A stretch of DNA of 64,000 nt from Magnetococcales bacterium (GCA_015231265.1 JADGBX010000004.1:494-64493), one strand, 5' to 3'. Positions 1 to 45,507 are shown, counted from the stretch's first letter. Notes: generated from the letters alone by a model not told the origin. Program-made: numbers and translations.

Positions 1-838
1 AGGGAAAATCGATCAGCTTCCTGAGATGTTGATGAAGGAAGGGATCACCAAGCGCCCCACTGACGGCAGCCTCCCCTTCCCAGACCGCCAGCGACCGAAG
101 ATACTCCTCCAAAGATCGATGTGAGATCTTCTCGAAACAGCGGCACCCCTCACGCTCAAAAGAGTCGGGATCCGGTTGATTCAACCAGTATCCGTAGGTG
201 GCTCTTAATGCTCTCACGGCAAGGGTGCGGATGATCACCGGATCTAGAGGTAGAGGATAGTCGTCCCCATCAACGCCATGGTCCGTCCGAGCGTGACGAA
301 CGAGGATCGTCACAGTTCTCCGCACCGGCTGGTGGGTCTGTGACAGAAGAAGAAGAGTCCCCTCATCAAACTCTGAAAACCTGGCAATAACTGCATCAAA
401 AACGGATGAAAAACGGGCAAGGCGTCCGTCGGACATCAATACGGCAACGGCATGAAGGTAGGCGGTCAACACCTCCAGTGCTTCATAGCGCTCCGACTCA
501 GTGCGACTCTCGTTGATTGCTTGAAAAAAGAGATCCACAAAGGTGGCAAAGAAGTTGTGTCCCTCTTCATGATCAATATATTGGTTGAGACAGGAGCGGC
601 TCAGTAGAAAACGGCGGAGCTCAGGAAGAATGAGACGCCAGTTGCGAAACGGGTGACTCAGTTCTACAAGGAGACGTTCCAGAGTTCGACTCACACCAGC
701 CAGACCGGCCACCGGCTCAAGAAGTCGAACATGTTCCGGAGCAATGGAAACCGAATCGACAGCTGTTTCGCGAAGATTGGCCCGCAGGGCACTTGATTGC
801 AGAGAATGGGCGTGATCCATTCTGGAAACGGGTGTCAT
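1..838 (-). CDS. 5' part of a large protein resembling the N-terminus of PEP/pyruvate-binding (pyruvate phosphate dikinase-like) proteins; runs off the window edge
   Basis: Not in the ORF track. My minus-strand translation is open from ATG 838 to base 1: MTPVSRMDHAHSLQSSALRANLRETA...LVELSHPFRNWRLILPELR...TYGYWL. The S-x-AL-x-x-NL and ELSHP(F/Y)RNW motifs recall the N-terminus of large deltaproteobacterial PPDK-like proteins. GGGAGGG RBS upstream. Confidence 0.5.
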   Translation of the reverse strand, partial: MTPVSRMDHAHSLQSSALRANLRETAVDSVSIAPEHVRLLEPVAGLAGVSRTLERLLVELSHPFRNWRLILPELRRFLLSRSCLNQYIDHEEGHNFFATFVDLFFQAINESRTESERYEALEVLTAYLHAVAVLMSDGRLARFSSVFDAVIARFSEFDEGTLLLLSQTHQPVRRTVTILVRHARTDHGVDGDDYPLPLDPVIIRTLAVRALRATYGYWLNQPDPDSFEREGCRCFEKISHRSLEEYLRSLAVWEGEAAVSGALGDPFLHQHLRKLIDFP

Positions 839-1105
839 GAACCGCACGTTCCCTCCCGGTGATGTGGATGACGATTCAGTCACGAAAACTTGCCCTTCCC
901 TTCCATTCCTGCACGAACCGCGTCATACTCACCCGCTTGAAATGACATATGCATGAGGTATCGTTCATATCGCTTGGGAATCGGCACCATGACAGCCATC
1001 CCTTGCCCTGGACACGAATACCGTTAGAGTAGTGTATATTTCAGCTGCTGACAATACGGAGCAGCGGTCTCAAACCACCTTTGGTTCAGAGTTTGGAACG
1101 ACTCC

Positions 1106-1552
1106 ATGCCAAGAATTCGCCTTACTGAAACGATCCCTTATACACCGGATCAGGTCTACGGCCTCATCGTCGATGTTGAGAGCTATCCACAGTTTCTGCC
1201 GTGGTGTGTCTCAACGCGTAAATTCGACGTTGAAGAGGAGCAGTTCATTGCCGAACTGACCATCGCCTTCAAAGGGATCCGTCAGAGTTTTCAAACTATT
1301 GACAGGGTTATTCCTGGCAAACAAGTTGACATCCATCTCAAATCAGGACCGTTTCGTCATCTGACGAGTCACTGGCGCCTGACACCCCAATCCAACGACT
1401 CAACACGCATCGACTTTTCCATCGATTTCCAGTTCAAAAGCCGAATCATGAATATGACGGTCGGCCCGGTTTTCACCCACGCTGCCAAGCAGATGGTGGC
1501 CGCCTTCCGGAGTCGTGCACAAGCACTGTACGGTTCGGACGCCGCCTCCTGA
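1106..1552 (+). CDS. RatA/PasT/COQ10 family START-domain protein (paralog 1)
   Basis: PYTPDQVYGLIVDVESYPQFLPWC and SGPFRHLTSHW motifs; C-terminal MVAAFRSRAQALYG. Confidence 0.9.
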   Translation: MPRIRLTETIPYTPDQVYGLIVDVESYPQFLPWCVSTRKFDVEEEQFIAELTIAFKGIRQSFQTIDRVIPGKQVDIHLKSGPFRHLTSHWRLTPQSNDSTRIDFSIDFQFKSRIMNMTVGPVFTHAAKQMVAAFRSRAQALYGSDAAS

Positions 1553-33539: not shown

Positions 33540-33788
33540 TCAGCGCATCCCGAGAGCCTGCTTGTAGAGGTGAAGCAGTGCCTCTTCTTCATCAACCTGA
33601 TGCTGATCCATTTTTCGAAGCCGGATAATCTGACGCATCACTTTTGGTTCGAAACCACCGTTCTTCGCTTCGGCATAGATCTCGCGGATACTGGCCCCAA
33701 TCTCAGATTTTTCCTCTTCAAGACGTTCAATTCTTTCAACAAAAATACGAAGCTCTTCATGCTCGATCTCAGGGCTGCTCTCCGACAT
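33540..33788 (-). CDS. DUF2312 / GapR-like nucleoid-associated DNA-binding protein
   Basis: [40 protein letters not shown]; start moved to MSESS after a GGAGAG RBS. Confidence 0.92.
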
Positions 33789-34068
33789 TGTTCTCTCTCC
33801 TGTAATAGCTCTCATACACGCTGAACGCACCGTTCATACCTACAAGAACAGCACTGGACACAGCCGATGATTCCTCTGCAACGCACAACTGTCAAGCAAC
33901 TCACCACCCCATCAGGAGAGCGCCCAACCATACAAAAAACGTGAAGGGATCGTAAATATATCAGCAAGAGCTGCCAAAAACGTGCATAATCAAATTTCTT
34001 GAACACGATGCTTGAGTTGTTTTGCTTGGCATCTGACGATTAACGCAAGAATTTCAGGAATAGATTGC

Positions 34069-35790
34069 ATGGTTACCGAAGCGAAAACACCCCATCCGGC
34101 TCAAAACGACGACACGCTTGGAGAGATTCTCCAGCTCCTGAAAGAGATCCCGGAGATCAGCCATGACGGCTTCTCCAATATTACGGATCATATGGGAAAT
34201 TTCTCCAGCAGTTTTGCAACGGGTGCCACACGATCGATCTCCATTACGGAGCTGATCGAGTCGGATGGCGATATGGGGTTGACGCCCCTGCGTAATGACC
34301 TCCGCAAGGTAAACCGTGAGATCAGCGGCGCCTTCAAGTCCCTGGATACTCTTGTCGAACAGCAGCAAGGATTTCTTACCCTCATCAACAAGACACTGGA
34401 ATGGGCACTCACTCTGGAGCAGGACGCCTTTCTGCCACCCATCGTCGATCAGATCAAAGCTCAAAGCGGCGAACGCCTGGAAATCCAGACGCTCGGAGCG
34501 ATCATCGACAGCCTGATTCAACAGACCCGCCCCTTGATCCATGATGTAATCATGGCGAGTGAAGAGGCGACGGATGTGATGAACCATCTTTCCCGCCGCG
34601 TTACTGCCGACCTGGAGTCATCACGTCATGGACTCACAGGAATCAAGAAAAAAACCTCCCAGGGGACACGCACTCTTACCCGTATCGTCAAGGATGTCGG
34701 TTCTATTTGCAGTGCAATGCACGACCGTTCCCGCAAGGTGAATGATATCGTGTTTCAGATGGTGCAATCGATGCAGTATGACGACATCACGGCGCAGCGT
34801 GTACAACATGCGCTCCAAGCTCTGGAGACAGGTCGGGATAAACTGACTACAGAGAAACCGAGCACCAGAGACATCCAATGGTTTACCGTCGCATCGACCA
34901 TTATCATCAACCAACTCCATGCCACACGTGACGATGCAGTCAAAGCGATCAGTGACAGCCGGGAACAGCTTGATCTGATTGCAGAACTGGCCCGTGAACA
35001 GGTCAGTGACGTGAGCACTATCCGGAAACACGGTGTTGCTTTCAGGCAAGAGACGGCAGATGTCACCTATCATCTGACCTCAATGGGCCATTTCAGTGCA
35101 TTTAACGAACGCTTCTCCAATGATGTGCTCAGCGATCTGACAAAGGCTGAGAACGCAATTTTTCAGGCTAAACGGGCGATGAACGTCCTGGCCATGACCA
35201 GCAACCGATTGGAAAAATTGGCCTCTTCCCTGAAAACACAAGGGAGTGAACGGCTGGAAGTACTGACGCGCAACATCATCGCTCTGGCGCAGAAAATACA
35301 GATTGAAGGCCCAAAACAGGTGGCAGCTTTCAACAAAGCTTCTGTCAAACTTCATAGCATCAGCATGACTTTTTCGGACAAGGTAACTCCCAAGCTGATG
35401 CGCACCAACAGCCTGTTACGACGCGTTCCACTCACCACCAAACAGCTGGATAGCAACAACGAAGATCTGATCTCGGAGATGAATGAGACTCTTGGTGATG
35501 CACAGGCTACGGCTATTCAGATCATGCTCCTGGTCACAGAGATGGATTTCCACGAGGAGATTCATGACCATGTGGAAACTGCAACGCGCCTACTCAATAG
35601 ACTTCTGGAAGATCTTGGTATTTCCCCAGGCTCTCTGAGCGACAAGGAGTTGGCAGAATTGACAAATGAGTTTGAGGATCTCGCCAACATGTACACCATG
35701 GAGAGCGAACGGCGGGTTCACAACGCTGCGCTTGATCAAGGCGATGGGCATGCTGATGAGGACGATGATGATGGCATAGAGCTGTTCTGA
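34069..35790 (+). CDS. Soluble all-helical chemotaxis-associated protein (MCP-like/CheZ-like)
   Basis: Coiled-coil, no TM; MQYDDITAQRVQH motif; C-terminal YTMESERRVH...DDDDGIELF. Confidence 0.6.
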   Translation: MVTEAKTPHPAQNDDTLGEILQLLKEIPEISHDGFSNITDHMGNFSSSFATGATRSISITELIESDGDMGLTPLRNDLRKVNREISGAFKSLDTLVEQQQGFLTLINKTLEWALTLEQDAFLPPIVDQIKAQSGERLEIQTLGAIIDSLIQQTRPLIHDVIMASEEATDVMNHLSRRVTADLESSRHGLTGIKKKTSQGTRTLTRIVKDVGSICSAMHDRSRKVNDIVFQMVQSMQYDDITAQRVQHALQALETGRDKLTTEKPSTRDIQWFTVASTIIINQLHATRDDAVKAISDSREQLDLIAELAREQVSDVSTIRKHGVAFRQETADVTYHLTSMGHFSAFNERFSNDVLSDLTKAENAIFQAKRAMNVLAMTSNRLEKLASSLKTQGSERLEVLTRNIIALAQKIQIEGPKQVAAFNKASVKLHSISMTFSDKVTPKLMRTNSLLRRVPLTTKQLDSNNEDLISEMNETLGDAQATAIQIMLLVTEMDFHEEIHDHVETATRLLNRLLEDLGISPGSLSDKELAELTNEFEDLANMYTMESERRVHNAALDQGDGHADEDDDDGIELF

Positions 35791-35885: not shown

Positions 35886-37862
35886 TTACTTGCTGGACAG
35901 CGCCAACAGCAGACCATTTAGCCGTTTGACGTAACCCGCAGGATCCTCCAACTGTCCCCCTTCACCGAGCAGTGCCTGATCAAACAGTACGTTGGCCCAA
36001 TCTCCAAAGCGAGCCTCATCGCTCTCCTTCTCCATCACCTGCATCAGGGGGTGGTCGGGATTGAGTTCCAAGATCCGTTTTGTGGCGGGCACATCCTGTC
36101 CAGCCTCTTTCAAAATCCTCTCCAGAGAGGCACTCATATCGTGGTCATCACTGACCAGACAGGAGGGGGAGTCCGTGAGCCGGGCCGAGGAACGCACATC
36201 CTTGATGCGATCGCCCAACGTTCCCTTCACCCGTTCGATAACCCCATCGATGCTGGATGCTTCCTTCTCTTCACTCTCAGATGCCTTCTCTTCATCGTCG
36301 GAAACCTCTTCTCCACCCAGCTTGGAGAGATCAAGATCACCCTTGGTCACAGACTGCAACGGCTTCCCATCGAACTCATTGAGGTGGGTCACCAGCCACT
36401 CATCAACCCGATCGGTAAGCAGTAGCACTTCAATGCCCTTACGACGGAAGATCTCCAGATGGGGACTGCTGGAAGCGGCTGCACTATTCTCAGCATTGAC
36501 GTAATAGATCGCCTCCTGCCCTTCTTTCATTCTCTCGATATACGCCTGTAGAGAAATTCTCTGCTCGGCAACATCGTCATGGGTCGTTGAGAAGCGCAAC
36601 AGCTTGGCAATGCGATCCTTATTGGCGGCATCTTCTATGATGCCCTCTTTGATCACCATGCCGAAGGTTTTCCAGAAATCGTTGTATTTGCTTTCGTCTT
36701 CGTCTTTAGCCAACGTCTCCATCAACCCAAGAACCTTACTCACTGCCCCCTTGCGAATGGCACTCATCACCCGGTTCTGCTGCAGAATCTCACGGGAGAC
36801 GTTAAGCGGCAGATCGGAGGAGTCCACCACACCGCGAATAAACCGCAGATATCGGGGCATGAGATCCTCTGAGCCCTCCGTGATGAAGACGCGGCGCACA
36901 TAGAGACGGACACCATCCTTCTGCTCTCGATCCCAGAGGTTGAACGGGGGGCGTTTCGGGATGTAGAGAAGCAGCGTGTATTCGTAGTTGCCTTCGAGGC
37001 GGGCATGAATATGGCTCAGTGGCTCGTCGAAATCGTGAGAGACATGTTTGTAGAACTCCGTATACTCCTCATCGCTGATTTCCGACTTCGAACGAGTCCA
37101 GAGGGCGGAGGCCTGGTTGATCTTCTCCCACTCGGGCTTCTGCTCACCTTCACCATCCGCTTTGCTTTCAGCCTCCTTTTCACCCTCCTCTTCATCAGGA
37201 ATCGTCTCTTCAGGGGGGATCGGCATCATGATCGGCCAGGCGACATGATCGGAGAATTTCCGAATGATCGACTTCAGGCGCCAGCCATCGATAAACTCAT
37301 CCTGATCTTCACGCAGATGCAGAATGACATCCGTTCCACGCTGGGCTTTAGAAACGGTCTCAATAGTGAATTCACCATCCCCCTTCGAGGACCAGCGAAT
37401 CGCGGCACTCTCTTCGGTACCAGCACGACGGGTCAGAACAGTGACCCGGTCGGCAACGATGAAAGCCGAGTAGAAACCGACGCCGAACTGACCAATCATC
37501 TGCGCGTCGCTGGCCTGATCTCCCGAAAGAGACGAGAGGAACTCCTTGGTCCCGGAGCGAGCGATTGTGCCCAAGTTCGCGATCACCTCATCGTGATCCA
37601 TCCCGATGCCGGCATCAGAGATCGTGAGGGTCCGAGACTCCTTGTCGAACGAGAGACGGATCTCCAATGAGGAGTCTCCTTCATAGAGTCCATCATCGGA
37701 AAGTGCGGCAAAACGGAGCTTGTCAGATGCATCGGAGGCATTTGAGATCAGCTCGCGAAGAAAGATCTCCTTGTTGCTGTAGAGCGAGTGAATCATAAGA
37801 TCCAGAAGCTGCCGAACCTCAGTCTGAAAAGCGTGTGTCTCTTGGCCGGTTGTGGTGGTCAT
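35886..37862 (-). CDS. htpG: Molecular chaperone HtpG (Hsp90)
   Basis: FQTEVRQLLDLMIHSLYSNKEIFLRELISNASDA, IGQFGVGFYSAF, DLPLNVSREILQ. Confidence 0.98.
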   Translation of the reverse strand: MTTTTGQETHAFQTEVRQLLDLMIHSLYSNKEIFLRELISNASDASDKLRFAALSDDGLYEGDSSLEIRLSFDKESRTLTISDAGIGMDHDEVIANLGTIARSGTKEFLSSLSGDQASDAQMIGQFGVGFYSAFIVADRVTVLTRRAGTEESAAIRWSSKGDGEFTIETVSKAQRGTDVILHLREDQDEFIDGWRLKSIIRKFSDHVAWPIMMPIPPEETIPDEEEGEKEAESKADGEGEQKPEWEKINQASALWTRSKSEISDEEYTEFYKHVSHDFDEPLSHIHARLEGNYEYTLLLYIPKRPPFNLWDREQKDGVRLYVRRVFITEGSEDLMPRYLRFIRGVVDSSDLPLNVSREILQQNRVMSAIRKGAVSKVLGLMETLAKDEDESKYNDFWKTFGMVIKEGIIEDAANKDRIAKLLRFSTTHDDVAEQRISLQAYIERMKEGQEAIYYVNAENSAAASSSPHLEIFRRKGIEVLLLTDRVDEWLVTHLNEFDGKPLQSVTKGDLDLSKLGGEEVSDDEEKASESEEKEASSIDGVIERVKGTLGDRIKDVRSSARLTDSPSCLVSDDHDMSASLERILKEAGQDVPATKRILELNPDHPLMQVMEKESDEARFGDWANVLFDQALLGEGGQLEDPAGYVKRLNGLLLALSSK

Positions 37863-38276
37863 GATCTGCTAGTGCCTCGTATGAGCTTGACGTATCAAAA
37901 AGTAGACAGAATTGGTATATCGAACGACCTGTGAGCTGCATCCATCCGCAATTCAACATGGGAAGCGACTCCTCATATGGAGTGGTACACGAATAGTTTG
38001 CCGCACAGTATCCTTAAGAGGATCAGTTCTCTTATTGCTCAACTCTTTTTCGTGCAATAACACGGGTCATTGCGCGTGTATATTGGCATGCACGGAAACG
38101 AAGTCCACCCCTCCAGGCCATTTTTTTCATTTCATGAGAAACAGGCAACAGCCGTGATAGAGGTGGATGACGGTGGAAATACAGGATGATGACGCTCTTT
38201 TCCCAATGGTCTGGTGGTCACACATGGTATATTGGTTGGGTGATGACGCTAACGTTCTGCCTTGAAGAGACTCTCC

Positions 38277-39248
38277 ATGCCTCGACCAAAATCAAGGATT
38301 ACTCAATATACTGTCCAAGACGCCTATCAGTACATTGAACGGGCACTCTCCGGTCAGAGGTTGGAGTTGAAAAAGAAGAATGCAGAAGAGCTTTTCCACG
38401 CAATTTCTCTTGATGATCACGCCCAGGCAGCGTTGCAACTTCAGAACTGGATAGACGATTACATGCCGGAGGCCAACAGGCGCAGAATGCTGGGGTCTCT
38501 GCGTCAGGCTAAGTTCGCAAGAGAGTCAAAAATCGTCAATTTAACGGTAACCAGTGACACTTCACAACATCTTGACCACTTTCAGAAAAAACATGGTCAC
38601 TCCTCGCGTAATGAAGCTCTCAATGCTCTTCTCAAAGAACTCGATCGTATCGAGGCACAGCACTCTCCCCCTACACCGGGAGCACCAACTACTGATAAGA
38701 GAGCAATAGAACCTCAAACCGACTCTCAAGCCACCCAATCCGACCCCAACACTAGAGCAGACAAAACCGCAACACCCTCGCTTCCTCTTTCATCACCCAC
38801 GCTCTCCAACAGGAGGACACGACAAGCAGAGCAACATAATCCACAGAGAGAGATCGCACTTATCGCTTTGGAACGCAAACATCAACGGATGTTGATCAGT
38901 GCAATTCTCCTTGTCTTTTTTGCTCTTGCTTTAGGTTACTTCTTCGGAATTGGCAAGCACAGAATTGATCGCATCGCAGAGAAACCGGATCAGCTTTCCA
39001 TCGTCGATCCTGAAGCACTCCTCGATCCCAACAAACGCCCTTTGGTCAGAATCGGCAATGGCAACACCTGGATGCGACTGGTACCACTGGAAGATGCACC
39101 GATCTCCAAAGCCCCCTCGGTTACATCAACACCTCTGATGGAAGTCCCCACACACTCCAAAAAGCCGGGTGAAAACACACTGTTGGAAACAGAGCCTATT
39201 ACTACTTTGCAAATGAGCTACACCCTGGATCCGGTATCTGACCCATAG
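38277..39248 (+). CDS. Hypothetical membrane protein with MatP-like N-terminal DNA-binding/RHH region, disordered linker and one TM helix
   Basis: LQNWIDDYMPEANRRRMLGSLRQAKF..KIVNLTV..LDHFQKKHG..SRNEALNALL resembles the MatP helical bundle plus RHH; S/T/P/Q linker; TM MLISAILLVFFALALGYFFGIG. Confidence 0.6.
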   Translation: MPRPKSRITQYTVQDAYQYIERALSGQRLELKKKNAEELFHAISLDDHAQAALQLQNWIDDYMPEANRRRMLGSLRQAKFARESKIVNLTVTSDTSQHLDHFQKKHGHSSRNEALNALLKELDRIEAQHSPPTPGAPTTDKRAIEPQTDSQATQSDPNTRADKTATPSLPLSSPTLSNRRTRQAEQHNPQREIALIALERKHQRMLISAILLVFFALALGYFFGIGKHRIDRIAEKPDQLSIVDPEALLDPNKRPLVRIGNGNTWMRLVPLEDAPISKAPSVTSTPLMEVPTHSKKPGENTLLETEPITTLQMSYTLDPVSDP

Positions 39249-39259
39249 AGAATCCAGGC

Positions 39260-40774
39260 TTAGCGTCCGGATCGGAGAATCATCTGGTTATCTTTTGAGC
39301 GACTCTCACCCACGGAAGAGACTCGGATTGCAGGAAGATCCTGAACTGGACACTTATTTTCACATATTCCGCAACCGATGCAGAGTTCCGGATCGACAAA
39401 TGGCTGCTTCAACACCTTCACCTGTCCTTCTCGATCAACGACCTTCTTCTTCTGATACCAGATCGCCTTGGGTGACGTTGGGCACATCTCCTCACAGACG
39501 ATACACTCCGTCTGCATGGCCCAAGGCAGACAGCGCCCACGATCATAAAAGGCCGTACCCAGCTTCACTGGCGTTTTGAAGCCTCCAACCCCCACTTTTT
39601 CAGCCACCGAAATGGGCCGGATCGCCGCTGTGGGACACACCTGTCCACACAACACGCAGTGGTGCTCACAATAGCCAAGTTTAGGAATGAGAATCGGTGT
39701 CCACACCCCTTCTATTCCAGACTCCAACAGGGCCGGTTGCAGCACATGCGTGGGACACACCTTCATACAGGCACCACACTTGATGCAACGCGCCAGAAAG
39801 TCAGATTCAGGCAAACTTCCCGGCGGGCGAATGACACCTGGCAGGGGTTCTGTTCGAGAACTATCGGCACTGCTCAACATGGGATGAAACAGTGCTGCAG
39901 CGACCGTGGTCTCAACGAGACGTCTTCGACTCACATCGATAGGGGCGTGAATGGAGCTTTTCTCCCCTGGTAATCCGAAATGCAGAGCGTCATGGGGACA
40001 CTCTCGGATACAGTTGAGACAAACATGGCACTCGGAGATGCGCAGCTCTCCCTGAGGATCACACGCTCCCTGGCAGTGACGCATGCACGCCATACAGTCG
40101 GTGCAGCGATCCACATTGCGGCGAATCCGGAACGGCGCCCGCCAGGACAGCACTCCCAACAGAGCGCCCAAGGGACAGAGCGTGCGACACCAGAACCTGG
40201 GAATGAATCGATTAGCTAGAATCAGAGCGATGAAGATCAACGCCAAACCAACACCGCCATGAACCAACATCTGTGACGTTCCAAGGGGTAGATTCCACTG
40301 TTGCAAGGCTGGAAATATCCCCAGAATGAAAGAGCGCGTTATGAGCGCCAATGGATCGAACAGCCCGATCTGCAAAGCACCAAACAGTGATAACACCAGA
40401 AGTGACAGAAGAATGTAATACTTGAGTGAGAAATATGAACGATAACGGTTGCGTGCGTAATCTTCCTTCGGTCGCAGAAAGGAGAAGAGGTAGCCCGTAA
40501 ACTGATTCAATATCCCCAGTGGACAGATCCAGGAACAGAAGAATCGACCAAAAAACAGTGTTAAAACAACAATTAGAACTGACCACGCCAAAGCACTGTA
40601 GAGCATGCCACTGGTCAAAATCACCGAGAGACCGGTCAGAGGATCCAACGCCAGAAGCCAATCGGTCTCATACCCTTGAAGATCCTCCCCATTCATCATA
40701 GTGAGGAAAAACAGAAACAGAGCAAAGAAGAAGATCGCATAGAGACGACGAATGGCACGCAGATCAGGAATCAT
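39260..40774 (-). CDS. Membrane polyferredoxin, NapH/MauN-like fused to NapG/MauM-like domain
   Basis: GRFFCSWICPLG, RFWCRTLCPLG, several CxxCxxC motifs, IRPPGS..FLARCIKCGACMKVCP, CIGCGICENKCP. Confidence 0.88.
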   Translation of the reverse strand: MIPDLRAIRRLYAIFFFALFLFFLTMMNGEDLQGYETDWLLALDPLTGLSVILTSGMLYSALAWSVLIVVLTLFFGRFFCSWICPLGILNQFTGYLFSFLRPKEDYARNRYRSYFSLKYYILLSLLVLSLFGALQIGLFDPLALITRSFILGIFPALQQWNLPLGTSQMLVHGGVGLALIFIALILANRFIPRFWCRTLCPLGALLGVLSWRAPFRIRRNVDRCTDCMACMRHCQGACDPQGELRISECHVCLNCIRECPHDALHFGLPGEKSSIHAPIDVSRRRLVETTVAAALFHPMLSSADSSRTEPLPGVIRPPGSLPESDFLARCIKCGACMKVCPTHVLQPALLESGIEGVWTPILIPKLGYCEHHCVLCGQVCPTAAIRPISVAEKVGVGGFKTPVKLGTAFYDRGRCLPWAMQTECIVCEEMCPTSPKAIWYQKKKVVDREGQVKVLKQPFVDPELCIGCGICENKCPVQDLPAIRVSSVGESRSKDNQMILRSGR

Positions 40775-44066: not shown

Positions 44067-44598
44067 GCGCTTTCCTCACGATGTAGGGAAATGAACACTA
44101 TTGCCGACTTCTCCAACGAATTCTATCACTCTTTTCTGCATGTTTCATTTTTTCCATAGGCAAGAGTCACAACCACCAACTCAGAGGTGTTATCTACTGA
44201 TGTGAATCCCACTTCCAAGTCATTATCAGTTTGTTCCATATGATCAAAAAAGAAGAACAATTCCATTGCCATCACCTCATAGAATCGCCATAATGTCGGC
44301 CTCACAATTAAAAACCATCCTATACGAACTCCTGTCTTTTCGGTTCACTGTTGCTGATGGTCATGAGTTTCCTACCATGCGTCGAGACATGGATGACAAC
44401 AAGACTTTATTCGAAGTAACTGACTGATTTTCTGTGAGGTATTACCCAGCATTTTCAGGCTGTCCACCCTCCATTGAGGGGTGATGACAATAAAAGGGGA
44501 ATTGGAACACGCAATCTGGAACTGACTCAGAACCACACAATAGTGTTTGACATGCCTTTTTGTTGAGTCGGCAGCCATACCCTGTTCCTAATCTTAAA

Positions 44599-45507
44599 AT
44601 GAAAACACAACCAATGAATGCTCACCTCCCTGACCCTGAAGAGGTAAGGGAGCTGCTATTTGTTCTTGAAAAGGCCCTCAGCGACCATAATACATGGATG
44701 ATGAATTGGCATCGCGCCATCATCTGCAACCAAAGTGTTGAAGAGGCGCATCTTGATCATAAAGCACACAGAAAATGCAACTTCGGAATATGGTACTACA
44801 ACTCAAACCACCCCATCCTGAGCAACCATCAATCTTTTCTTAATATTCGCACCATCCACAGAACCCTCCATGAAATGGGGCGAGAGCTTCTGATTAAATC
44901 CGGCAAAGGTCTGGAGATCATGCCCGGTGAATACGATACGTTTCTCGAAATTCGTACTCAGTTTCGAGCTGAGATTCGTGTTCTGGAAAAAACTCTGAAT
45001 GATCTCATTGCCAGCACAGATCCACTCACCCGCGTCTTCAACCGCTCACAGATGAAGAGCATGATTGAACACCACCATACGATGTTGAAGGAGACCGGTC
45101 ACGTCTGCTCCATTGCCATGGTGGATCTTGACCATTTCAAATCCATTAACGATACGTATGGCCACAAGACCGGGGATGATGTTCTACAGTTTGCTTCTGG
45201 CTTCATTGCTCGCAATCTTAGACCTTCCGACCTCATTTTCAGATATGGCGGTGAAGAGTTTCTCGTCTGTCTGCCAAAAACGACAACGCAAACAGCCTTT
45301 CATGTCCTGGAACGCATTCGCTGCCAACTCTCTCAACAGACGATCAACAGCACGGATGATCAGGTACTGAAGGTAACCTGTTCTGTTGGCATCTCACAGC
45401 TTCAAACCAATCTTTCACTGGAAGAAGCCCAGAAGCAGGCAGATACAGCCGTTTACGATGCCAAACAGAGTGGTCGAAACAGAATCTGCGTCTTTGAAGA
45501 AAACTGA
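44599..45507 (+). CDS. Diguanylate cyclase with N-terminal CZB zinc-binding domain (DgcZ-like)
   Basis: H..W, HRKCNFGIWYY, IHRTLH (CZB); DPLT, DLDHFKSINDTYGH, RPSD I-site, RYGGEEF. Confidence 0.92.
   Translation: MKTQPMNAHLPDPEEVRELLFVLEKALSDHNTWMMNWHRAIICNQSVEEAHLDHKAHRKCNFGIWYYNSNHPILSNHQSFLNIRTIHRTLHEMGRELLIKSGKGLEIMPGEYDTFLEIRTQFRAEIRVLEKTLNDLIASTDPLTRVFNRSQMKSMIEHHHTMLKETGHVCSIAMVDLDHFKSINDTYGHKTGDDVLQFASGFIARNLRPSDLIFRYGGEEFLVCLPKTTTQTAFHVLERIRCQLSQQTINSTDDQVLKVTCSVGISQLQTNLSLEEAQKQADTAVYDAKQSGRNRICVFEEN

Follow-up and report, generated by a model that had tools for sequence, protein, structure and literature searches.

MatP of Enterobacterales, Vibrionales and Pasteurellales (PF06303 and PF17414; PDB 4d8j, 3vea, 3veb and 7nyw) consists of a helical bundle followed by one ribbon-helix-helix (RHH) motif and a C-terminal coiled coil, through which the protein tetramerizes and contacts ZapB. 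By co-occurrence it is associated with MukBEF. ToxR, CadC and TcpP are well-described membrane-integrated activators, and their DNA binding holds DNA at the membrane. Noc of Bacillus subtilis binds chromosomal DNA site-specifically and brings it to the membrane (PMC4331003), ZapT of Caulobacter crescentus is a proposed terminus-divisome linker in bacteria without MatP (PMC7188993), and MatP homologs are said to occur only in enteric bacteria and groups close to them or to be absent from Pseudomonas (PMC7188993, PMC3642087). Here we analyze a gene from Magnetococcales, an order outside those known to carry MatP, whose product combines a MatP-like module with a predicted membrane anchor. The gene lies in a 64,000-nucleotide stretch of a Magnetococcales bacterium (GCA_015231265.1, JADGBX010000004.1:494-64493; hereafter the window) and forms an uninterrupted open reading frame (ORF) of 323 amino acids, P0001, at 38277-39248(+). 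A first-pass annotation of the window had read it as a MatP-like DNA-binding domain fused to a transmembrane helix and thus as a candidate chromosome-to-membrane tether.

P0001 is related to neither of the two other linkers in fold. Noc belongs to the ParB family and binds the membrane peripherally via an amphipathic helix, whereas P0001 has an integral transmembrane helix; ZapT, unlike P0001, is a soluble MerR-family protein acting through ZapA and ZauP. The translation contains the strings AYQYIER, LQNWIDDYMPEANRRRMLGSLRQAKF and KIVNLTVTSDTSQHLDHFQKKHGHSSRNEALNALL quoted in the first-pass annotation, and the largest ORF in competition for the same nucleotides has at most 62 amino acids. We preferred the ATG at 38277 to the upstream TTG at 38262 because relatives start with the same MxRPK...IT motif. 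Five parts can be distinguished along the chain (Table 1). Residues 1-129 were modeled by AF2 from a 32-sequence alignment with a predicted local distance difference test (pLDDT) score of 92.8, with bundle helices at 13-25, 36-41, 48-62 and 65-83 and an extended segment at 84-92. In the family alignment W58 is invariant, and P0001 retains W58, Y19 and R76 as invariant or near-invariant residues.

The remainder of the chain was examined by composition, hydropathy and a full-length single-sequence model, which has a mean pLDDT of 48.2 and low confidence except for the transmembrane helix. Proline, serine, threonine and glutamine make up 45% of residues 126-203; residues 130-188 are without predicted secondary structure and the pLDDT stays mostly below 50 up to residue 179, so the linker is probably disordered. 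The top 19-residue Kyte-Doolittle window comprises residues 205-223 (MLISAILLVFFALALGYFF) with a mean of 2.54, the runner-up elsewhere reaching 0.21, and the model gives a pLDDT of 87-91 at residues 201-220 inside a helix spanning 189-233. Composition and hydropathy agree with the S/T/P/Q-rich linker and single transmembrane helix described at first reading; its estimated start near 38889 falls exactly on the first nucleotide of residue 205, and the tail, put at ~95 amino acids, measures 98-100. The membrane anchor is well supported. We infer a cytoplasmic N-terminus and a C-terminus outside, because there is no signal peptide and the N-side flank of the helix bears net positive charge in the equivalent proteins of two other genomes (G006 and G020). 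The tail itself has three short strands in a low-confidence model, no Pfam family at E ≤ 0.1 and no usable ESM Atlas match.

Direct searches of Pfam, NCBIfam and the PDB (phmmer) with P0001 returned only a weak MLD match and a chance GGDEF match, and BLASTP against E. coli MatP gave E 0.36. P0001 stood alone among the matches listed by a word-index search and by a profile search for longer relatives. Using a 27-row profile of the N-terminal domain against 177,635 distinct PDB sequences, we obtained three MatPs as top matches (E 1.2e-4, 3.2e-4 and 0.034) with NikR next (E 0.08); the ranking was the same with an 11-sequence profile. For comparison of profiles, 22 genuine MatPs were drawn from the 26 genomes that passed the Pfam cut-off among 401 sampled from the phylum. 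E. coli MatP was also tried as a query for diverse MatPs; the rows listed were near-identical E. coli proteins and one of 69% identity, and none was used. Aligned by hhalign, the 27-row family and the 22 MatPs match over 72 columns with collinear offsets (91.5%, E 8.8e-7), pairing P0001 residues 54-126 with MatP residues 53-130, in keeping with the collinearity first noticed by eye. The MatP strings used for that comparison are present in E. coli K-12 MatP. Both families have a W-I/V-D...R..M...R motif in common, and P0001 and MatP are 12-15% identical. When run on the 401 genomes, the family profile also reached true matP, at E 9e-5 to 8e-4, in 3 of the 13 genomes of an enterobacterial-type family. 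Taken together, the N-terminal module of P0001 is very probably a remote homolog of MatP, from which it differs by its basic MxRPK N-terminal arm.

The predicted structure leads to the same relatives. Foldseek against the PDB placed MatP chains at all of ranks 1-8 (probability 0.77-0.99, TM-score 0.48-0.54, 128-140 columns), and from rank 9 onward the supported matches are nearly all RHH domains over ~40-50 columns. Among 48,161 representative chains compared with VIA-align, MatP 3vea_B alone reached Z ≥ 8, matching model residues 9-139 (Z 9.3, 125 residues) with a root mean square deviation (rmsd) of 9.1 Å. Next came generic death-fold bundles, which matched just the first domain (Z ~6, best 6.1). 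NikR 1q5v_A superimposed on model residues 88-129 with an rmsd of 0.9 Å (Z 5.0), and the RHH domains of many antitoxins scored Z 4-5. The large rmsd over two domains suggests that the angle between them differs from that in MatP. MatP clusters are also among the nearest named neighbors in the ESM Atlas (feature scores 0.90 and 0.88), with structural TM-scores of 0.63 and 0.58 over residues 8-130. The RHH assignment comes from superposition on solved RHH domains, RHH-type Pfam matches being sub-threshold and found in relatives only. The model shows a helical bundle followed by an RHH in one chain, as in MatP. Similarity to MatP, proposed at first by eye, was found by Foldseek, VIA-align and hhalign, and similarity to RHH domains by the two structural searches. 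The alignment stops at MatP residue 130, and in place of the coiled coil P0001 continues into the unstructured linker and the transmembrane helix, as the first-pass annotation had suggested. Overall, P0001 can be read as MatP-like in the sense of remote homology and a common fold, outside the curated MatP family.

Alternatively, the MatP-like fold might serve protein-protein contacts, have lost DNA binding or belong to a decaying lineage-specific fusion without specific function. Clustering at 90% identity leaves P0001 as a singleton, only five distant matches occur among 1.84 billion representatives, and the third-position GC content of its gene (GC3, 0.478) lies under the 0.49-0.64 of its neighbors, all of which would suit this alternative. 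On the other hand, the frame is intact, W58, Y19 and R76 are retained, the strand pattern KIVNLTVT together with the basic N-terminal arm is typical of DNA-binding RHH proteins, and the same architecture is maintained in three family-level lineages, and we consider the alternative improbable.

A bridging family links the Magnetococcales proteins to MatP. The family profile matched MatP-like proteins of ~120-147 amino acids (loci L098-L142). In the phylum sample they are encoded by 26 of the 110 genomes belonging to one family, Mariprofundaceae/Zetaproteobacteria, and less similar copies were found in Hahella ganghwensis (L140) and in metagenome-assembled genomes (MAGs) of Thiotrichaceae (L141), Aeromonadales (L142) and other Gammaproteobacteria. 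Their sequence pattern is MARPKYRIT...WTQLKNAIRAARRRA...VTLSRNAW...CTLSEVIERRLG; its MARPK..IT start recurs in the Magnetococcales family, and its IRAARRR and TLSE motifs recur in MatP. By hhalign, the Magnetococcales family matches the bridging family over its full length (97.8%, E 1.1e-12, 118 columns), covering P0001 residues 1-121, and the bridging family matches MatP over 83 columns (97.6%, E 3.8e-12). Individual bridging proteins match the two Pfam MatP models below threshold, in 5/10 and 6/10 cases. Like the N-terminal domain of P0001 they carry a single RHH and the same N-terminal motif; unlike P0001 they end after the RHH, without linker, transmembrane helix or tail, and unlike MatP they are without coiled coil. 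The bridging family is unannotated, and the sole member looked up, P0140, has no name in its record. Its distribution contradicts the printed claim that MatP homologs occur only in enteric bacteria.

Identical-protein records identify relatives from the same order as Magnetococcales, namely Magnetofaba australis, Magnetococcus sp. DMHC-6 and several MAGs, which agrees with the non-gammaproteobacterial lineage suspected at first. Of the 56 genomes of the order, 41 match the family profile (40 with a smaller profile), and we classified the best locus from each of the 41. In 26 genomes this is a soluble protein with the N-terminal domain and two tandem RHH motifs, counting two that are cut by a gap or contig end and one whose second motif was recognized by eye only. 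Seven genomes encode short single-RHH proteins and four the N-terminal domain only (one cut by a contig end), one genome (G003) has a C-terminal recombinase-like region beside a serine recombinase, and three, the source assembly G000 together with G006 and G020, have a long linker and one transmembrane helix. The soluble tandem members (e.g., MBF0614785.1 and MEO5379015.1) share the N-terminal domain and first RHH with P0001 (E 1e-36 to 1e-50 against the family profile) and differ from it by a second RHH in the chain and the absence of a transmembrane helix; the tandem could provide an RHH pair without dimerization. P0001 is no isolated case but a rare architecture (3/41) of an order-wide family, most often soluble with two RHH motifs. 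Family members are annotated as hypothetical except for the G020 protein, called "putative TPR repeat protein" in one source, a label that Pfam does not support at E ≤ 0.1.

As G006 and G020 encode the same N-terminal domain, long linker and single transmembrane helix, the architecture of P0001 is no assembly artifact. The three transmembrane forms span three family-level lineages of the order, and one of them is a letter-for-letter match to a Magnetofaba australis record (WP_085447138.1). At the equivalent position the helix has Kyte-Doolittle means of 2.07 in G006 and 2.65 in G020. Linkers of 75 (G000), 195 (G006) and 173 (G020) amino acids are mutually unalignable, a divergence expected for a spacer, and so are the tails of 100, 147 and 172 amino acids, respectively. 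In a tree of 32 N-terminal domains the transmembrane forms are mutual nearest rows by path without a supported clade uniting them, so the tree would accommodate one origin as readily as several. An apparent further transmembrane form in G049 was rejected as an artifact, in which an N gap joins the gene to a neighboring DJ-1-like gene.

In G020, which is 99% complete in 20 contigs, the transmembrane form is the sole full-length family member found and its gene adjoins thiD, as soluble forms do in five other genomes, suggesting that it substitutes for the soluble form. The shared locus and the prevalence of soluble proteins (38 of 41 genomes) would also be compatible with proteolytic release, in which the membrane sequesters the MatP-like module until the linker, long, exposed and disordered and hence a plausible protease substrate, is cleaved and the freed module acts as the soluble members do. 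This idea is purely speculative: there is no associated protease gene or cleavage motif, the neighbors being htpG and an Fe-S membrane protein, and a freed single-RHH fragment must still dimerize, whereas soluble forms carry two RHH motifs. We regard release as a minor and improbable alternative.

We favor a model in which P0001 would instead remain in place as a bitopic inner-membrane protein, with cytoplasmic residues 1-129 as a sequence-specific DNA-binding module made up of the basic N-terminal arm, the helical bundle and one RHH. RHH proteins read the major groove with a two-stranded sheet, for which a single-RHH protein must pair, as MatP does. Two P0001 chains would likewise pair via their RHH strands, as in MatP and other RHH proteins, and the dimer would bind a predicted site other than matS. 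The flexible linker of ~75 residues would allow the dimer to reach the nucleoid while the single transmembrane helix retains it in the membrane, so that bound loci would be held at the cell envelope, and the anchor would stand in for the coiled coil and ZapB route of MatP. The model builds on an intact ORF, a MatP-like fold, remote homology to MatP, a hydrophobic helix and an architecture that recurs in three genomes, all of which are established, whereas dimerization, DNA binding, the N-in orientation and the positioning of DNA as the purpose, rather than promoter regulation, are what we infer. A homodimer prediction for the N-terminal domain scored 0.50, with one unrelated control at 0.58, and weighs neither way on dimerization. 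E. coli MatP itself binds lipid bilayers in vitro (PMC6538776), which makes a membrane-bound relative less odd. Judged by sequence, a tether function is plausible, and a dimeric tether made of a single protein is a realistic possibility that we hold with some reserve.

Several results speak against a MatP-like tether. At the level of homology, P0001 has no PF06303 match even at E ≤ 10 and no PF17414 match (the curated cut-offs for these models, the MatP N-terminal domain and the MatP_C RHH, are 27 and 24 bits), so the Pfam comparison suggested by the first-pass annotation came out negative. Across the source assembly (3,818,756 bases, 459 contigs, 80% complete) PF06303 is unmatched, and the best places for PF17414, all sub-threshold, lie elsewhere than P0001. 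Members of the Magnetococcales family match below threshold only, PF06303 in 3 of 11 (best E 0.032) and PF17414 in 2 of 11 (best E 0.019). Because P0001 lies below the Pfam thresholds, we call it MatP-like and not MatP. Every Foldseek E-value exceeds 1e-3, and rmsd values are 5-9 Å. The transmembrane helix of P0001 itself is flanked by four K/R on either side, leaving the positive-inside rule uninformative, and its tail has no similarity to that of G020 (BLASTP E 0.25), in line with tails that are unconserved. Canonical matS (GTGACRNYGTCAC) occurs once in the 3,818,756 bases and is therefore not repeated, and the scan for enriched palindromes proposed at first reading brought up over-represented ones that all lie in dispersed repeats or in response-regulator coding motifs. 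The 414-bp region upstream of the gene contains no inverted repeat. In terms of distribution, the transmembrane form is present in just 3 of 41 genomes, no family member was found in 15 of the 56 genomes, a 99%-complete one of five contigs among them, the complete one-contig genome G012 has an N-domain-only copy alone, and some genomes have three to four copies. Apparent dispensability and a tendency to form paralogs would suit regulators better than a core organizer.

Such a distribution is what would be expected of a membrane-integrated regulator in the style of ToxR and CadC, in which the RHH activates or represses one or a few genes at their promoters, the tail or the state of the membrane controls dimerization and contact between DNA and membrane is incidental. 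The topology predicted for P0001, with an N-terminal cytoplasmic DNA-binding domain, one transmembrane helix and a C-terminal part outside, matches that of ToxR, CadC and TcpP. Furthermore, most RHH proteins are transcription factors, and the structural matches of P0001 to RHH domains alone are NikR and antitoxins. Unlike the ToxR-like proteins, however, P0001 is without the OmpR-type winged helix that defines them (no Pfam match at E ≤ 10), and where they have a folded periplasmic sensor its tail has no detectable domain and is unconserved among the three transmembrane forms. Linkers varying from 75 to 195 amino acids suggest reach, not signal transmission, the nearest characterized relative, MatP, is a chromosome organizer, and the missing upstream repeat also deprives a regulator of an obvious operator. 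We therefore consider regulation of this kind rather unlikely, if far from negligible, as the primary role of P0001.

For the tether, the DNA target and possible partners were sought in the source assembly. The window holds no canonical matS (0 occurrences), as the non-exhaustive first scan had indicated. MukB (PF04310) was not found in this 80% complete assembly, and neither was the SMC hinge, in a search whose control missed some expected genomes. Outside the window, a ZapB-family coiled-coil protein of 97 amino acids is encoded at G000:C222:66024-66272(-) (36.3 bits, E 2.3e-8, above the Pfam cut-off), and the ORF that follows begins MKDAIEISI and resembles zapA. The two could form a ZapB/ZauP-ZapA pair. 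Unrelated control genomes match the ZapB model as well.

The palindrome scan brought out dispersed repeats with palindromic cores in the source assembly, which fall into two or more families. GCTGGCG-N3-CGCCAGC (38 copies) often lies ~50 bp from TTTGGC-N3-GCCAAA (43), apparently as one element, and a second element contains TGAGGC-N3-GCCTCA (34) and GGAACC-N3-GGTTCC (37). These repeats are often situated at contig ends (C23:39, C35:70, C55:34836), where they probably break the assembly.

Since ToxR/CadC-type proteins and Noc are already described, linking DNA to the membrane has precedent. In our literature search, from which most subscription journals were outside coverage, no membrane-anchored transmembrane DNA binder with an RHH came up, only ToxR/CadC being relevant. 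The MatP DNA-binding module is present, unannotated, in two further classes of Pseudomonadota and is membrane-anchored in three Magnetococcales lineages, and the finding bears on the question of how the terminus is organized and the chromosome connected to the envelope outside the bearers of MatP. The Magnetofaba australis match offers a concrete protein for asking whether a single polypeptide can pin specific chromosomal sites to the membrane. If P0001 were a regulator, no ToxR-like architecture built on an RHH/MatP fold would precede it in the literature searched. The widest reading joins these elements: a MatP-type module would have become an integral membrane protein whose dimer pins a chromosome region to the membrane, perhaps to the envelope via the tail, independently of ZapB, and MatP itself would be one branch of an unrecognized superfamily. 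This combination is doubtful as a whole. If true, the superfamily would extend over Magnetococcia, Zetaproteobacteria and scattered Gammaproteobacteria and would couple one DNA-binding module to a coiled coil, a second RHH, a transmembrane anchor or a recombinase-like domain.

Further variants were observed within the Magnetococcales family. In one genus, an acidic repeated insert of 230-370 amino acids (units e.g. EEPAQEVVARQPSEV) separates the N-terminal helical domain from the tandem RHH (L143, G030:C216; L144, G025:C310; L145, partial), which is another way to part the two halves by a long spacer. The G003 member (L003/L015, G003:C216; ORF 462-1181(-) of L003) is soluble with a C-terminus weakly like the Recombinase domain PF07508 (E 0.0034) and, lying directly beside the serine recombinase gene, may be on a mobile element. 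The source assembly has a second family copy outside the window at C20:8317-8598(+), an N-domain-only protein of ~85 amino acids ending in TGA before any RHH and thus either a truncated paralog or a pseudogene; similar copies occur in G004, G012 and G023.

Table 1 Features of P0001 and genes in its neighborhood, with positions counted from the first nucleotide of the window.
Feature	Window position	Strand	P0001 residues	Remarks
GapR gene	33543-33788	(-)		PF10073, E 2.5e-32
htpG	35889-37862	(-)		divergent to the P0001 gene
Basic N-terminal arm (MPRPKSRIT) and helical bundle	38277..38525	(+)	1-83	resembles MatP N-terminal domain
Ribbon-helix-helix (RHH)	38526..38663	(+)	84-129	strand KIVNLTVT, helices 93-106 and 111-129
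P/S/T/Q-rich low-complexity linker	38664..38885	(+)	130-203	basic juxtamembrane end ERKHQR
Single transmembrane helix	38886..38951	(+)	~204-225	Kyte-Doolittle and model
Extracytoplasmic tail (predicted)	38952..39248	(+)	226-323	includes stop codon
Polyferredoxin-like (Fe-S) membrane protein	39263-40774	(-)		convergent with the P0001 gene

The genes flanking that of P0001 are functionally unrelated to it (Table 1), and its upstream region has promoter signals that are not in excess over shuffles. The GapR-like gene noted 4.5 kb away was confirmed by its Pfam match. Between it and htpG lies an ORF of 592 amino acids at 34012-35787(+). Its C-terminus is very acidic (DEDDDDGIELF), and it matches no Pfam family at E ≤ 1e-5. 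On the other side, the window encodes a diguanylate cyclase with an N-terminal chemoreceptor zinc-binding (CZB) domain at 44560-45504(+) (GGDEF E 1.4e-44, CZB E 1.8e-9).

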